64,000 bases of DNA, taken from positions 817 through 64,816 of the forward strand of contig CABUBU010000004.1 of assembly GCA_902489795.1 (NCBI GenBank), given 5' to 3'. The notes beneath the pieces are model-generated. The model worked only from the letters and a program-made list of their open reading frames with translations. It searched no databases and had not been told where the DNA came from. Origin of the DNA: an uncultured Azospirillum sp. Lineage in GTDB: Bacteria; Pseudomonadota; Alphaproteobacteria; RF32; CAG-239. The stretch's first letter is position 1; every line of letters begins with the position of its first letter. Positions 8,275 to 53,971 of this stretch are shown here, piece by piece. The position numbers and the translations under genes are program-made.

Positions 8275-9543
8275 ATGACAGCACCATTAGAAGGCATAAA
8301 AGTCATCGACATGACAGAAGTTCAGTCCGGTCCGTCCTGCACCCAGATGCTGGCCTGGTTCGGCGCGGAAGTGATCAAGATCGAACGTCCCAGCGGCGGC
8401 GATCCGACCCGCAGCGAACTGACCGACATTCCCGGCATGGACGGACTTTATTATTTGCAGCTCAACAGCAACAAACGCTCCGTGGGGCTCAACGTCAAAA
8501 CACCCGAAGGCAAGGAAATTCTTACCAAACTTCTGCGGGAAGCCGACGTCTTCGTCGAAAACCTGCACCCCGGCGCCGCCGACGAACTCGGCTTTTCCTG
8601 GGAAGAAGTACACAAAATCAACCCCCGCATTGTCTACGGTTCCATCACCGGTTTTGACGAAAACTCGCCTTATGCCAACGTCAAATGCTACGAACCGATT
8701 GCCCAGTGCGCCGGCGGCGCCGCTTCCACCACCGGCTGGTGGTCGGGGGAAAACAACCTTCCGACCCAGTCCGGCGCCGCGCTCGGCGACAGCAACACCG
8801 GCATGCACCTGCTGATCGGCCTGCTGGCGGCGCTGCTCCAGCGCAACAAAACCGGCGTCGGCCAGCATGTGCGCCAGTCGATGCAGGCCTCGGTACTCAA
8901 CCTCTGCCGCGTAAAATTGCGCGATCAGCTGATTTTGGAACACACCGGACGACTGACCAACTATCCGCAATATCCGAACAGCGTTTTCAACGACACCGTT
9001 CCCCGTTCGGGCAACATTGAAGGCGGAGGCGTTTTCGGCTGGTGTTACAAGTGCAAAGGCTGGGAAAACGATCCCAACGCCTATGTCTACATCGTTCTGC
9101 AAAGGGAAGACAAGGCTTTTGAAGCGGCCGCCAAAGCGCTCGGCAAACCGGAATGGATCAACGATCCGAAATTTTCCACCGCCGACGCCCGCGACAAGAA
9201 CAAGGAAGAAATCTACCGGGAAATTGAGCAGTTCACCATCGGCAAAGACAAATTCGAAGCGGTTGCCGAACTGAGCAAGGCTGGCGTTCCCTGCGGCCCG
9301 GTGCTGAGCCTGAAGGAAATCGAAAACGACCGTTCGCTGCGCGAAAACGGCACCATCGTCGAAGTGGAGCAGATCAAACGCGGCAAATATCTGACCGTCG
9401 GCATGCCGATGAAATTTTCCGACTTCACGCCCGAAATCAAAGGCGCGCCCCTGCTCGGCCAGGATACGGACCCGATTCTCGCCGGGCTGGGCTACACTCA
9501 GGAACAAATCGTCAAACTGCGCAACGACAAAGTCGTCGCCTGA
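8275..9543 (+). CDS. frc: formyl-CoA:oxalate CoA-transferase (family III CoA-transferase)
   Basis: Collinear by eye with Oxalobacter formigenes Frc / E. coli YfdW. Shared motifs: [104 protein letters not shown]. Length is similar (422 vs ~428 aa). Confidence 0.85.
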
Positions 9544-37567: not shown

Positions 37568-37633
37568 CTATCACTCCATAAAATAAGCCGCCCCAAAGGA
37601 CGGCCGGTTACAAAAAACATAAACTCATATAAA

Positions 37634-37663
37634 GAAAAGCCGTTGACTGCTCAACGGCTTTTC
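37634..37663 (-). terminator. intrinsic terminator inside the leader upstream of the fibre genes
   Basis: Minus strand GAAAAGCCGTTGA-gcag-TCAACGGCTTTTC followed by TTTAT. Confidence 0.6.
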
Positions 37664-37679
37664 CCACAAAAGTTTGTTC

Positions 37680-37758
37680 TTATAGTGATTTGGAAAGGTC
37701 TATAACTAACATTTTTAACTTTCTCCTAGATTGTATTAAAAATATATCCCTTTGTCAA
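37680..37758 (-). promoter_or_regulatory. consensus-like sigma70 promoter + RBS + 10-codon mini-ORF
   Basis: Minus strand TTGACA (37758-37753), 17 nt, TACAAT (37735-37730). AGGAGAAAG RBS. ATG at 37712, encoding MLVIDLSKSL, stop at 37680-37682. The terminator follows immediately. Confidence 0.5.
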
Positions 37759-37778
37759 CATGTAATTTCTTGTAATGC

Positions 37779-38040
37779 AAAAGGAGAACCGTTGCCGGCT
37801 CTCCTTCCCTCCTATCGTCTAATCGACAGGAAAATTCGGATTTTCCGAATGATAATAATAAACTTTATTATCATAACTTTCCTTTCAGCCTTATCGGCGG
37901 TTGGGAAAGGGAAAACCCAATACCTATTGACTTTTTACACCAAATAGGCTATCTTTAACTCATGGAAGGTTAAAGAATGGGTTTAACCCTTTCCGAATTA
38001 AAGAATCGTCCGGTGTTCCAGCACCGGACTTTTTCTTTAT
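37779..38040 (+). repeat. ~260-nt prophage intergenic element, copy 1 (copy 2 at 51590-51853)
   Basis: Shared order with copy 2: GGAGA..TCTCC hairpin with a minus-strand T-run; AATGAT(G)ATAATAA hairpin; TTGACT-17 nt-TATC(T/C)T promoter; CCTTTCC; CCGGTGTTCC(A/C)GCACCGG + CTTTT(T)CTTTAT terminator. Confidence 0.6.
37962..38036 (+). ncRNA. predicted ~75-nt small RNA (copy 1), antisense to the late transcript
   Basis: Promoter TTGACT (37927-37932), 17 nt, TATCTT (37950-37955). Internal hairpin GGAAGGTTAAA/TTTAACCCTTTCC. Terminator hairpin 38010-38027 plus T-run. The TSS position is inferred. Confidence 0.4.
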
Positions 38041-38060
38041 AGCCTAAGCCTTATATGCTG

Positions 38061-38621
38061 TCAATCGGCTTTCGCTAATGCTTCTTTTTTCGCAAACCAG
38101 CGGTCGGACTTCTCCTTTGTGTTCACCGACCACAGCCAGACAAAACGTTCGGCAAACGCCGCCACCGCCAACCGGTCACTAAGAAAAATACAATTCTCAC
38201 TGTTTTTGACGGTAGCCGGTTCCGTCCAGTTATAGCTCCCCGTCACCGCCGTTCGTCCGTCAAATACCGCAAATTTGTTGTGCTCAATCTTATGTTTCGA
38301 GTGCACCCGGATATTAACCCCGGCCCGGTAAAGCTCCCACACCTTGGAACTTCTGCCGGCCGCCTGCAAACGGTCGGTCAGGATCCGCACTTTCACCCCG
38401 CGGCGGTCAGCCTCTTTCAAAGCCTCCACAATATCCACATTGTTCAGCGAATAGACGGCAACGTCAATTTTCCGGCGGCTGCCGTTGATCATCTTAACAA
38501 TGCTTTCCTCACAGGCATTTGAGGGCGAAAAATACACCTCAACACTCCCGGCCGGCTGAAAGCCCGCCGCCAGCACCGCCCCACAGAGAAAAACACAAAT
38601 AAGAATTGACAGCTTTCGCAT
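38061..38621 (-). CDS. secreted PLD-superfamily endonuclease (Nuc of pKM101-like)
   Basis: Signal peptide MRKLSILICVFLCGAVLAAG. Single HKD motif HNKFAVFDGRTAVTGSYNWT. ~185 aa mature size and KNSEN motif as in periplasmic Nuc. ATG at 38621. Confidence 0.75.
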   Translation of the reverse strand: MRKLSILICVFLCGAVLAAGFQPAGSVEVYFSPSNACEESIVKMINGSRRKIDVAVYSLNNVDIVEALKEADRRGVKVRILTDRLQAAGRSSKVWELYRAGVNIRVHSKHKIEHNKFAVFDGRTAVTGSYNWTEPATVKNSENCIFLSDRLAVAAFAERFVWLWSVNTKEKSDRWFAKKEALAKAD

Positions 38622-51571: not shown

Positions 51572-51589
51572 AACAACCTCCCGACCAAA

Positions 51590-51853
51590 AAAAGGAGAGC
51601 AATTGCTTGCTCTCCTTCCAAAATCTACTTCTTTATCAAGAAGAAAATTTTTAGTTTTTTAATGATGATAATAATTTTTACCATCATCCTTTTCACCTCC
51701 GTTTCGCATAATGCGGAAAGGAGTTGAAAGCTTACTTGACTTTTTAATCAAATAAGGTTATCCTATACCCATAGGTTGGAGTTATAGGACGTTCAACTCC
51801 TTTCCTAGGTTTAGGAAATTGCCCGGTGTTCCCGCACCGGGCTTTTCTTTTAT
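51590..51853 (+). repeat. ~260-nt prophage intergenic element, copy 2 (copy 1 at 37779-38040)
   Basis: Same module order as copy 1. The left hairpin GGAGAGCAattgCTTGCTCTCC has a T7 run on the minus strand, i.e. an intrinsic terminator between the nozzle gene and the gp13-like gene. Confidence 0.6.
51771..51850 (+). ncRNA. predicted ~80-nt small RNA (copy 2), antisense to the late transcript
   Basis: Promoter TTGACT (51736-51741), 17 nt, TATCCT (51759-51764). Hairpin GGAGTT...AACTCC then CTTTCC. Terminator hairpin 51822-51841 plus T-run. The TSS position is inferred. Confidence 0.4.
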
Positions 51854-51877
51854 ATCTTAAAATCCCCCCATTGTCAA

Positions 51878-53971
51878 TTATGCCGAACTTTGCATACTCG
51901 GTACAATCGCCTGGATCAGCATCGGATAAACGCTTTTGTTTTGGATAATAATGTTTGCCCCGCGGTCTTTCAACAAAGAAGTACCGTCAGGCCACGGAAT
52001 AACCACATTGCCGGTAAACAGGCGAACTTCGCCCGCTGCCAATTCTTTGCCGCTATGATATAAAATATCCTGCTGCCGGTCATAGGCCGGCCCCGCCGTC
52101 CCGCCGCCGGAACGGTAAACCATCAGCGTCAGGTGATCAATCCGCTGAACACAGGACATCCCCATGCCTCTGTCCGACTGAAGATATATCTTTTGCGGCT
52201 GAAGCACCGAACTGATCGGCAGCCCGACCACCACCCGCGCGTCCGTTTCCTTAATCTCGATCGAACCATCATCGGCCACAATCTGATGCGGGCGCTCCAG
52301 TCCGTTGGCCGAAATCGCCACTTCGCAGCCTTTCAGATGATCAAGCCCGGAGAGCTTTGTCGTCACATCACCGACCGGCCGGTTGTAAATCAGGCCGCTG
52401 TCAACAAAAAAGCCGGAATCGCGAATATAATCCAACTCTGCTTTCTCTCTTTCAACCGGATCACGAATATATTCCACGTCGTCCGGGTAGTCGGAACGGG
52501 TCCCATTGTCAATCCATTCCGCATATCGTTTCATCACGCTGCCGATTTTACGCTTAACGATCACCCATACGTCATCGCGGCGTTCATCATTTGAGGGAAT
52601 TACCGCCACCGCCTCGACCGAACCCGACAAATCATGTTGCGCCAAGGCCGCCACCTGCTGCTGGGCGTCGAAGGTAAAAGACACCAGACGCCCGTCGGCC
52701 ATTACCAGCCACAACAGTTTGTCCGGCACGTCCTGCCAGTCCCAGCTGACAATACCCGACGACAACAGATGTTTGCCCAAGAGCGAGGCGTCAAGCGGAT
52801 CATAACCGTCGCGTTCGTAACTGTAAACCAGATCGCGGATTGACGTGCCGAAACGGTCGACAAACAAAATATGCCCACCCACCGCTATCGGCTGGATCGG
52901 CTTGCTGCCGATACCTGAAATCTGACGGATCGCCACATTGTCCGCGGCCAAAGCTTCGCCGTTGGAAATCGCGTCGATATAAAACTCTCCGCTTGAGGTG
53001 CCGACAAACAGAACGTCGCCGCCCGCAATCCAGCGTCCCTGATTGTACTCCTTTGAGTTAACCGGCACCGTAACCGCGCATTCCGCCGTCACTTCGCCAA
53101 ATTCCTGATCGGCGAAATTGTTGAAATCACCGGAATAAGACCCGCAGGCTTTCAAACCGTCGGCGGCATCAATCAGTAACCAGAACCGGTTTTTATAAGA
53201 ACAGCCCGACAACGGACAATTCCGCCCGGGATAAATCATGCCAAATTCAAAATGCGAGGTTACCAGCGCCTTCGGCATTTCAATAATCACTTCGGCCTTG
53301 ACCTCGGTCGCCGAAACGTATTCGGTGATTTTGGCGGTACCATAGCCGGCATGCAGATATTTCCACGTCACTTTCCCGTCGGAACGGCTGCCTTCCGTGT
53401 GCACCGGCTTCACGTTGCCGGTGGTACCTTCATTCAAGGCTTCGTAATATTTACCGTCCGACGTCCACACCGCTCCCTTGCTGACACTCTCCTCGACCTG
53501 CCATGCCGTCGTGTCATCATTGACCAGCGTCAGACGGATCAGACGTCCGACGTCGTCTTCAGCGAACAAATTTGCATCTGCCGTCAAACTGATGGTTCCG
53601 GTCGTTCCGCTTGCGGTGATTTTTATATCTTCGGTGTTAACGTGATTCCACGGGCCGTTTAAGAGTTCCCAGTCCTCCAGCCGCCAGTCGTCGTTGGCAT
53701 AACGCGTCAGCTTTTTCATATATTTCGGGTGAAAAATATAAAGCACGTCGCCAATTTGCGCAAATTGCAAATTGTAGCATTCAAGCTCATCGTTCCAAAT
53801 GTCTTCAAGCGTATACGGGCTCTCCAGTTCATAAACTGCATCGTCTTTCAAAACTTGGCCGTGGTTGGCAAACAGCCGGATGTATTTGTCGCCGAACTCA
53901 AGCATAAAACCGGCGTTGCCGGCAAACTTAAACTTGATCAGATCGGCTCTTTTGCTTGTTTTCTCCGCCAT
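51878..53971 (-). CDS. tail tubular protein B / nozzle (T7 gp12-like) lacking the canonical N-terminal ~55 aa
   Basis: Starts MAEKTSKRADLIKFKFAGNAGFMLEFGDKYIRLF (the 'rLipFeFs..qaYilEFgd.yiRfy' segment of the family). C-terminal SGLDHLKGCEVAISANG...VVVGLPISSVLQPQKIY...RLFTGNVVIPWPDG is family-typical. The ATG lies 1 nt after the upstream stop. Confidence 0.65.
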   Translation of the reverse strand: MAEKTSKRADLIKFKFAGNAGFMLEFGDKYIRLFANHGQVLKDDAVYELESPYTLEDIWNDELECYNLQFAQIGDVLYIFHPKYMKKLTRYANDDWRLEDWELLNGPWNHVNTEDIKITASGTTGTISLTADANLFAEDDVGRLIRLTLVNDDTTAWQVEESVSKGAVWTSDGKYYEALNEGTTGNVKPVHTEGSRSDGKVTWKYLHAGYGTAKITEYVSATEVKAEVIIEMPKALVTSHFEFGMIYPGRNCPLSGCSYKNRFWLLIDAADGLKACGSYSGDFNNFADQEFGEVTAECAVTVPVNSKEYNQGRWIAGGDVLFVGTSSGEFYIDAISNGEALAADNVAIRQISGIGSKPIQPIAVGGHILFVDRFGTSIRDLVYSYERDGYDPLDASLLGKHLLSSGIVSWDWQDVPDKLLWLVMADGRLVSFTFDAQQQVAALAQHDLSGSVEAVAVIPSNDERRDDVWVIVKRKIGSVMKRYAEWIDNGTRSDYPDDVEYIRDPVEREKAELDYIRDSGFFVDSGLIYNRPVGDVTTKLSGLDHLKGCEVAISANGLERPHQIVADDGSIEIKETDARVVVGLPISSVLQPQKIYLQSDRGMGMSCVQRIDHLTLMVYRSGGGTAGPAYDRQQDILYHSGKELAAGEVRLFTGNVVIPWPDGTSLLKDRGANIIIQNKSVYPMLIQAIVPSMQSSA

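Follow-up and report, generated by a model that had tools for sequence, protein, structure and literature searches.

What is the purpose of a densely folded intergenic element that a single prophage carries twice? The question arises from a 64,000-nucleotide stretch of DNA from an uncultured Azospirillum sp. (GenBank assembly GCA_902489795.1, contig CABUBU010000004.1, positions 817 to 64,816 of the forward strand; "the window" in what follows). The original prediction had noted here a ~260-nt structured repeat at 37779-38040 and 51590-51853, which it read as a promoter-small RNA-terminator unit antisense to the late operon. The repeat is genuine, and every identical block listed for it is found in both copies, but the true unit is a little longer, with a minus-strand promoter on its upstream edge: copy 1 occupies window positions 37777-38064 and copy 2 positions 51588-51877. 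Each ~290-bp copy is probably an autonomous locus of the type I toxin-antitoxin kind, a prophage "moron" that would found a new family. That its architecture is one of two genes, for a peptide mRNA and for an antisense RNA, can be held with high confidence, and the predicted peptide is reasonably likely to function as a toxin. The anatomy of the cassette and its conservation are established, as are the coding signature of the peptide gene, the covariation of a long-range helix between two leader segments (S1 and S2), and mobility with multiple copies.

The two copies have diverged (identity ~67-78%; 78% column identity over the 352 columns of their pairwise alignment). A BLAST search of copy 1 against the whole assembly (1.62 Mb, 62 contigs) returned itself and copy 2 only, the latter at 67% identity and E 6.7e-8, and a profile search of the genome likewise gave copies 1 and 2 as the sole full copies. 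Both strands fold far more stably than dinucleotide shuffles, and the minus strand more so than the plus strand: -105.5 and -102.4 kcal/mol for copies 1 and 2 on the minus strand (z -9.2 and -10.2), compared with -94.1 and -89.2 kcal/mol on the plus strand (z -8.3 and -8.6).

It is on the minus strand that each copy reads, at the level of signals, as a complete gene: a promoter, a 5' hairpin (P1), a structured leader of ~150 nt, a Shine-Dalgarno (SD) sequence, an open reading frame (ORF) of 20 codons, and a terminator. In 15 aligned units the TTGAC and TATAA of this sense promoter are invariant around a variable spacer, and the promoter boxes were detected in 49 of 56 units. P1 is G+C-rich and lies at the predicted 5' end of the mRNA. 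At the other end, 5-8 nt separate the ORF stop codon from the terminator stem in both copies. A consensus terminator scan of a 20-kb stretch omitted both minus-strand terminators (37779-37806 and 51587-51617), yet every fold predicts them.

Relatives of the element, amounting in total to 50 distinct units, were collected, and they define the ORF as a gene. It is found in every unit recovered without use of the ORF (copies 1 and 2, L029, and L010-L012), and it is intact, at 18-24 codons, in 47 of the 50 distinct units of the whole-unit profile. The three exceptions have lost a start or a stop codon, and all three retain the antisense promoter considered below. Copies 1 and 2 differ at 20 of 60 ORF bases, with replacements that are all I/V/M/L/F or K/R swaps. 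Across the units, entropy at codon positions 1, 2 and 3 is 0.68, 0.40 and 0.95, and the same residue class is kept in 2653 of 3259 nonsynonymous codon differences. Judged by these substitutions, the ORF is under coding constraint, and the peptide sequence is conserved beyond codon composition.

The predicted peptide has 20 residues and is both very hydrophobic and highly cationic. Three peptide subfamilies occupy the one RNA scaffold: A, which is cationic and includes both window copies, B (MLIKIIIIIKLILDILLTILQ) and C (MINLIKVLSIIIHLLKIIILLMK). Subfamilies B and C resemble transmembrane segments, with a grand average of hydropathy (GRAVY) above 2, and are classic hydrophobic mini-peptides. 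The viral contig L029 has a C-type unit (MMDLIKVLSILIMVLKIIIIIIQ, at 8779-9081) besides its A-type unit; thus one phage can hold two peptide subfamilies on the same scaffold.

Structure was examined on an alignment built by a sequence-only model, and hence not fitted to any structure. When the copy 1 structure is laid on the aligned units, 77.1% of its positions are paired versus 72.5% in shuffles, and its covariation score of 0.219 (0.154 in shuffles) was reached by none of 500 shuffles and by none of the slid controls, all of which scored lower. In the P1 helix pairing reaches 95.7% and 7 of the 8 pairs show compensatory changes, which occur in the sense terminator as well. The hairpin that holds the start codon is 82-100% paired and contains many G.U pairs (GU 20, UG 17, GU 8 and GU 7 at its pairs); G.U pairs would be A.C mismatches on the other strand, and the hairpin therefore belongs to the minus-strand RNA. 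The original prediction had contrasted TGATAATAA/TTATTATCA in copy 1 with ATGATG/CATCAT in copy 2 as a structure-preserving divergence. The segments concerned are codons 1-3 of the ORF, which pair with codons 6-9, and this start-codon hairpin is under the constraint of coding as well as of structure.

A further helix links distant parts of the leader. The purine-rich S1 near the 5' end (GAAAGGRG) pairs with the pyrimidine-rich S2 (CYCCUUUC), which lies just upstream of the SD, and the variable positions of the two co-vary (GGG/CCC, GAG/CUC, AAG/CUU, AGGG/CCCU). Counted over the units, 140 of 176 S1:S2 pairs are formed, versus 128.5 +/- 2.1 in shuffles, a count attained in none of 2000 shuffles. 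Pairing with the SD region itself (S3, GAAAGGAG) is equally open to S2; that region is situated a few bases downstream and resembles S1. Little energy separates the S1:S2 from the S2:SD conformation, and which of them has the minimum free energy (MFE) depends on slight shifts of the transcript ends. The calculated cost of opening the SD is 0.4-7.8 kcal/mol in the free mRNA and 5.7-12.8 kcal/mol with the 5' end blocked; making nucleotides 1-68 of the mRNA unavailable adds 2.8-7.4 kcal/mol to it in all 13 units, 5.0 on average. None of 160 shuffles of these 68 nt matches the observed rise, which thus depends on the native 5' sequence.

Judged by sequence signals, the plus strand carries a gene, with promoter and terminator of its own, for an RNA antisense to the peptide mRNA. 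The promoter, the ~75-nt RNA and the terminator of the original prediction are, as signals, kept in every relative among the 50 distinct units. The antisense promoter is placed within the leader, convergent with the sense promoter, and is at the same place in 50 of 50 units with a spacing of 16-18 nt. The pattern TTGAC[AT]-N16-18-TAnnnT matches 49 of the 50, the remaining unit having TTGACA-17-GATACT, and the spacing is kept even in two units (L123, L134) whose spacer has been swapped for an unrelated GC hairpin. The plus-strand terminators at 38008-38029 and 51821-51842 were the top-ranked of that strand in the 20-kb scan. Transcription would start opposite nucleotides 67-72 of the mRNA and yield a two-hairpin RNA of ~71-80 nt whose 3' end is the reverse of P1 followed by a U-tract. 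Its predicted overlap with the mRNA is ~68 nt of perfect complementarity, ending ~85 nt upstream of the SD. Cognate antisense/mRNA duplexes over the first 70 nt are calculated at -133 and -144 kcal/mol, and cross pairs between copy 1 and copy 2 at -67 and -69 kcal/mol; the two prophage copies are predicted to be partly, not fully, insulated from each other. A plus-strand mini-ORF of copy 1 (MGLTLSELKNRPVFQHRTFSL) was rejected as a candidate gene, as it is not conserved in copy 2.

The target and the mode of action now look different from those first proposed. The short RNA had been taken as antisense to the late operon; it is instead complementary to the 5' untranslated region (UTR) of the minus-strand peptide gene, and elsewhere the cassette is inverted or chromosomal. 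The CCTTTCC block, which had been placed in a single-stranded part of the short RNA, lies in the 3' arm of its 5' hairpin, where the probability of being unpaired is 0.0-0.4 in 14 relatives. Its complementarity to GGAAAGG-type SD sequences holds, but with the block predicted to be paired, nothing points to an unpaired anti-SD loop directed at other genes. Within the partner mRNA it is segment S1 to which CCTTTCC is complementary. The features of both copies are collected in Table 1.

Table 1. Positions, in window coordinates, of the features of the two cassette copies
Feature	Position	Strand	Sequence and basis
Copy 1 sense promoter	38036..38064	-	TTGACA (38064-38059), 17-nt spacer, TATAAA (38041-38036); read from sequence
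Copy 2 sense promoter	51849..51877	-	TTGACA (51877-51872), 17-nt spacer, TATAAA (51854-51849); read from sequence
Copy 1 P1 hairpin	38008..38029	both	5' stem-loop of sense mRNA; on plus strand, antisense terminator hairpin, then TTTTTCTTTAT
Copy 2 P1 hairpin	51821..51842	both	5' stem-loop of mRNA and antisense terminator; scan, covariation
Copy 1 predicted peptide (toxin) mRNA	37779..38029	-	~250 nt; fold z -9.2; predicted ends, set by promoter and terminator signals
Copy 2 predicted peptide (toxin) mRNA	51587..51842	-	~255 nt; folds
Copy 1 S1, 5' leader segment pairing with S2	37987..37994	-	GGAAAGGG; S1:S2 in MFE structure, covariation
Copy 2 S1	51797..51805	-	GGAAAGGAG; fold and covariation
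Copy 1 S2, anti-SD-like, pairing with S1 or SD	37904..37911	-	CCCTTTCC; two alternative MFE structures
Copy 2 S2	51715..51723	-	CTCCTTTCC; folds, covariation
Copy 1 SD region (S3)	37877..37886	-	GAAAGGAAAG; read from sequence and SD-opening calculation
Copy 2 SD site	51696..51700	-	GGAGG; read from sequence and SD-opening calculation
Copy 1 ORF	37812..37874	-	20 codons and stop, MIIKFIIIIRKIRIFLSIRR; start codon within a 9-10-bp A/U hairpin
Copy 2 ORF	51625..51687	-	20 codons and stop, MMVKIIIIIKKLKIFFLIKK
Copy 1 sense intrinsic terminator	37779..37806	-	AAGGAGAGCCGG..CGGTTCTCCTT, then U run; folds, compensatory changes
Copy 2 sense intrinsic terminator	51587..51617	-	GGAGAGCAAGCAATTGCTCTCC, then U7; folds, compensatory changes
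Copy 1 antisense promoter	37927..37955	+	TTGACT-N17-TATCTT; promoter scan; conserved
Copy 2 antisense promoter	51736..51764	+	TTGACT-N17-TATCCT; promoter scan; conserved
Copy 1 predicted antisense RNA (antitoxin)	37962..38040	+	~75-80 nt, two hairpins; complementary to mRNA nt 1 to ~68; ends predicted
Copy 2 predicted antisense RNA	51771..51853	+	~80 nt; ends predicted

From this anatomy we infer transcription of both strands, a switch at the SD and toxicity of the peptide, in the following scheme. The sigma-70-type promoter of the minus strand would make a ~250-nt mRNA with P1, leader, strong SD, ORF and terminator, and the convergent promoter of the plus strand a two-hairpin RNA of ~75-80 nt that ends at the reverse of P1. 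In the free mRNA, S1 would pair with S2 and so keep S2 off the SD. When the antisense RNA covers S1, S2 would be freed to fold on the SD and, together with the start-codon hairpin, would shut translation; the long sense/antisense duplex would probably also attract RNase III. If the antisense RNA were lost, the peptide would be made and would presumably harm the cell. Transcriptional interference is possible as an additional layer, because the predicted antisense RNA extends into the -10 region of the sense promoter. A role of the cassette in stabilizing the prophage or in phage release is plausible by analogy with prophage-borne type I systems, for which prophage stabilization (PMC7699646) or an aid to phage release (PMC8621323) has been described.

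Several observations weigh against this scheme or parts of it. The sense -10 box, TATAAA or TATAAG, is non-canonical, lacking the usual final T, and its overlap with the U-tract of the antisense terminator could be part of the reason for its conservation. The original prediction had looked to homologues with covariation for support; 50 units were found and their structure covaries, but the covariation test of the S2:SD helix gave no support (negative or uninformative). In several units (L123, L134) the folds leave the SD largely sequestered when no antisense RNA is present either. With the SD closed in the free mRNA of some units, the primary transcript may be inert and require processing, as in many type I systems. 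Nor is there any likeness, in the searches made, to a known type I family. At gathering score, Rfam covariance models gave no match over the whole window (Sok, Sib, RdlD, IstR, OhsC, RatA and SR4 included), and at E up to 10 either copy returned only noise, with weak PyrR, ctRNA and similar hits that are terminator look-alikes. For five representative peptides, Pfam and NCBIfam gave no match with E as high as 10 (profiles for Hok/Gef, Ldr, Ibs, TisB, Fst and others included), with the limit that such short peptides are hard to score.

The peptide itself is equivocal. Fozo et al. (2010) describe type I toxins by a length below 60 amino acids, at least 10 hydrophobic residues per 15-residue stretch, charged C-terminal residues and tandem repeats (PMC2887945). 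In the copy 1 peptide, 11 of the first 15 residues are I, V, L, F, C, M or A, above the 10 of 15 given by Fozo, and the C-terminus is RR; the ORFs so tested had 20-23 codons. On the adverse side, subfamily A has a charge of +6 and no uncharged run longer than 5 residues, which is atypical for a membrane toxin, and its hydrophobic moment at 100 degrees (muH) is 0.04-0.15, below that of shuffles, on which ground an amphipathic-helix reading was rejected. Because of this charge, the short uncharged runs and the lack of amphipathicity as a helix, membrane-pore action is not assured for subfamily A, the main one.

How widely is the cassette spread? Four viral contigs with a 92-99% identical 728-amino-acid protein carry it at the site of copy 2, and in L029, a viral contig more distantly related, it occupies a site like that of copy 1. 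With a degenerate pattern for the ORF, 13 stretches were recovered from viral sequences and 4 from genomes; the latter are all recorded as gut metagenome-assembled genomes of uncultured Alphaproteobacteria or Rickettsiales. R1, a sequence-only Infernal model of the whole unit, matches 71 of 151 sampled genomes of the host family, in 17 of 23 genera. A single genome of 1.3-1.9 Mb gives as many as 12 matches, and tandem arrangement is common. Outside the family, a sample of 150 further families of the class gave no more than two matches, both marginal (E ~4e-4). The load is very high in some genomes of 1.5-1.8 Mb, with 9-12 matches (G105, G115, G042, G069, G033, G116), and arrays of three to four adjacent units occur, e.g., at G105:C3 36250-37278 and G127:C34 4565-5490. 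A BLAST search of copy 1 against 50,697 GenBank phage records found no match. A pattern scan for the P1 hairpin in viral contigs gave 109 stretches, mostly ~30-nt terminator-like sequences, of which only those in L029, L024 and L028 were informative. L024 (7560-7800) and L028 (1500-1720), relatives of the present phage, have at the copy-1 site a short form that lacks the antisense promoter, S2, SD and ORF: the terminator follows directly on a sense promoter (TTGACA-17-TATGAA), P1 and S1. It looks like a deletion remnant.

Placement varies as well. In myovirus-type loci the cassette is inverted relative to the flanking genes, in one context (L124/L127) and another (L125/L128/L132), the neighbors being DUF3383 sheath-like and gp32 tube-like genes, and collar gp28-like and major capsid genes. 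Chromosomal, non-phage sites are also occupied: one unit lies by PFK/LepA (L136), and a tandem pair lies between genes for an outer-membrane protein (OMP) beta-barrel and a TPR-methyltransferase (L133). In L029 the same two virion genes are adjacent with no cassette between them. It follows from the inverted placement, the chromosomal and tandem sites, the absence in L029 and the remnants in L024 and L028 that the cassette is autonomous and mobile, sits in either orientation, and is best read as something other than a regulator of the late operon. The possibility first raised of a small mobile intergenic element is supported by the phage and chromosomal sites, the tandem arrays and the many genomes.

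These data bear on what else the cassette might be. The same anatomy would serve a small-protein gene with a cis-antisense regulator whose peptide is not lethal but acts on a membrane or ribosomal target, in superinfection exclusion or in lysis timing, the antisense RNA only tuning the peptide level. Such an alternative is helped by subfamily A, which has neither a clean transmembrane stretch nor an amphipathic helix, and by the finding that some predicted type I candidates are not toxic (Fozo et al., PMC2887945). We nevertheless regard it as unlikely: the multi-copy, tandem and mobile spread, with an occasional copy that has lost its ORF but not its antisense promoter, is typical of addiction modules, the sister subfamilies B and C encode hydrophobic mini-peptides on the same scaffold, and the occlusion of SD and AUG in several layers points to a need for very low expression. 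A cis-acting gate of the late operon has also been considered, in the manner of a leader-peptide attenuator, of put, or of PR'-tR' antitermination, in which translation of the mini-ORF or the fold of the leader decides read-through and the antisense RNA sets that decision. Both window copies are co-oriented with the late genes, the terminator of copy 2 stops ~15 nt from the next virion ribosome-binding site (RBS), and the stop codon is near enough for a terminating ribosome to overlap the 5' arm of the terminator. A gate of this kind is hard to reconcile with inverted units (L124/L127, L125/L128/L132), with chromosomal sites and tandem arrays (L133, L136), with the related phage L029 that has the virion genes adjacent without a cassette, with L024 and L028 that keep only promoter, P1, S1 and terminator at the copy-1 site, or with conservation of peptide sequence more than of codon composition. 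Put-like or Q-type antitermination and leader-peptide attenuation were rejected on these inverted, chromosomal and tandem contexts, and we judge a gate of the late operon to be very doubtful.

Two readings dispense with the peptide altogether. The plus-strand ~75-nt RNA might be a trans-acting phage small RNA (sRNA), with a CCUUUCC that targets the SDs of other genes and an inert opposite strand. Its promoter and terminator are conserved, and CCUUUC is complementary to GAAAGG-type SDs, that of the cassette included; yet the supposedly inert strand has a conserved promoter, SD, coding ORF and terminator, the G.U pairs of the ORF hairpin fit the minus strand only, CCUUUC is predicted to be paired within the sRNA, and a perfect 68-nt cis target would outcompete 7-nt matches in trans, so that this is highly improbable. 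An element acting as DNA (a single-strand origin, a packaging or recombination site, or a repeat like a miniature inverted-repeat transposable element), with no RNA or protein product, would be consistent with dense hairpins on both strands and with many copies per genome. It is barely credible in view of the substitution pattern by codon position and the maintained 20-codon frame, two promoters with conserved spacing, and strand-specific G.U pairs; moreover, no terminal inverted repeats were seen in the unit alignments. A promoter of a conjugative element or of single-stranded DNA (Frpo/sso) was dropped, the neighbors being podovirus virion genes and a coding ORF having emerged.

The type I toxin-antitoxin-like explanation leaves room for a second function. 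It is conceivable, if improbable, that the phage cassette doubles as an RNA-gated valve, in which ribosomes on the mini-ORF would melt the terminator and permit read-through into the internal-virion genes; in such a valve, exhaustion of the antisense RNA would be the condition for translation. One 290-bp unit would then couple the release of toxin, the shut-off of the host and the read-through into late genes, and the +6, Ile-rich 20-mer, unusual for a type I toxin, might have its target outside the membrane, in the ribosome or nucleic acid for instance.

An element of comparable outline is the lambda PR'-6S-tR' region, or put of HK022, in which a constitutive promoter gives a short structured transcript that ends at a terminator before the late genes; HK022 has two copies. 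The cassette shares with these the order of promoter, short structured transcript and terminator, and with HK022 the two copies per phage. The lambda and HK022 elements are fixed in cis, with no ORF and no antisense partner, whereas the cassette is independent of orientation and also chromosomal.

The known type I systems offer closer parallels, among them Hok/Sok and Ldr/Rdl of enterobacterial plasmids, chromosomes and prophages. At Hok/Sok loci, and at those of Ldr/Rdl, a short cis-antisense RNA overlaps the mRNA 5' of the ORF, as listed in T1TAdb (PMC8594479), and hokW-sokW occurs in phage Sp5 (PMC8621323). The cassette would similarly combine a stable and highly structured toxin mRNA with an antisense RNA 5' of the ORF in a multi-copy, prophage-borne locus, and the predicted role of S1 recalls the 5'-proximal element of hok mRNA whose long-range pairing decides the opening of the SD. 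It differs from Hok/Sok and Ldr/Rdl in having no sequence or covariance-model similarity to them, in a peptide of 20 rather than 35-52 amino acids (with an mRNA here of ~250 nt), and in an antisense RNA that covers the extreme 5' end, including the 5' hairpin that doubles as its own terminator. Unlike Hok/Sok, it has no overlapping mok-type leader ORF. In timP/TimR of Salmonella and E. coli, a purely structural RNA switch operates, in which a long-range interaction in the 5' UTR competes with a stem-loop that sequesters the SD, and binding of the antitoxin in the 5' UTR disturbs the activating interaction (PMC13000454). The predicted competition of S1:S2 with S2:SD follows the same principle, in an unrelated sequence and host; no pseudoknot was identified here, and the switch of the cassette is predicted only.

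In size the peptide is nearer to Ibs/Sib of E. coli, with toxins of 18-19 amino acids, and to AapA/IsoA of Helicobacter pylori, in which AapA1 has 30 amino acids (PMC5416894). Both families have numerous paralogs within a small genome, frequently arranged in tandem (PMC2887945), and CU-rich anti-SD sequences are present in mRNAs of the Ibs/Sib and AapA/IsoA group (PMC6733600). The cassette resembles this group in its very small peptide, its many tandem copies and its CU-rich anti-SD. In Ibs/Sib and AapA/IsoA, however, the antisense RNA overlaps the ORF or RBS (PMC8594479), whereas here it ends ~85 nt upstream of the SD, and the Ibs peptides are uncharged and hydrophobic, in contrast to the +6 of the main subfamily A. 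Firmicutes prophages likewise harbor type I systems that stabilize the mobile element, namely CD0977.1-RCd11 of C. difficile phiCD630 and bsrG/SR4 and yonT/SR6 of B. subtilis SPbeta (PMC7699646, PMC5848175). A small toxin and antisense pair inside a prophage is also predicted here, with no homology to those systems, which have 3'-overlapping antisense RNAs, toxins of 34-58 amino acids and Gram-positive hosts.

Type I systems are listed in general for Proteobacteria, Firmicutes and Tenericutes (PMC12390103), and neither T1TAdb nor Fozo et al. (PMC2887945) mentions Alphaproteobacteria. The cassette would add a type I toxin-antitoxin-like family for uncultured, small-genome gut Alphaproteobacteria, a clade for which none was found described. 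With up to a dozen matches per 1.3-1.9-Mb genome and occurrence in at least two unrelated phage types, it is likely to be a major mobile/selfish or defense element. Gene callers miss it because the ORF has only 20 codons. The 50 natural variants also provide a covariation data set for a switch of SD, anti-SD and anti-anti-SD, and in the annotation of this prophage the cassette explains two structured intergenic regions and the terminators within the virion operon.

The prophage is of podovirus type, and the neighboring genes of both copies are all on the minus strand. They include the small and large terminase (TerL), a T7-type portal (PF12236, E 1e-89), a head-fiber protein, a gp14-like internal virion protein and a 2640-amino-acid polyvalent ART/LPD3 protein; accessory genes of the Bro-N and PLD-like types come next. 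Copy 1 has the PLD-like gene on one side and, on the other, a 192-amino-acid ORF and a 493-amino-acid protein with an F5/8 type C domain; copy 2 occupies the gap between the 728-amino-acid virion gene and the block of internal-virion genes. The sense -35 box of copy 1 (38059-38064) overlaps the TGA stop of the upstream PLD-like gene, and that of copy 2 (51872-51877) abuts the TAA stop of the 728-amino-acid gene (box and stop together, 51872-51880), so the cassette fills the intergenic gap exactly. In this prophage both copies are co-oriented with the late genes, the sense terminator of copy 2 ending ~15 nt 5' of the RBS of the next virion gene. The terminators of the cassette interrupt the virion operon of this prophage, a side-effect of the landing site. 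Directly past the terminator of copy 1, and with no counterpart after copy 2, the minus strand at 37625-37758 holds a second mini transcription unit ahead of the 192-amino-acid gene; its parts are a TTGACA-17-TACAAT promoter, an RBS, a 10-codon ORF (MLVIDLSKSL) and a strong terminator.

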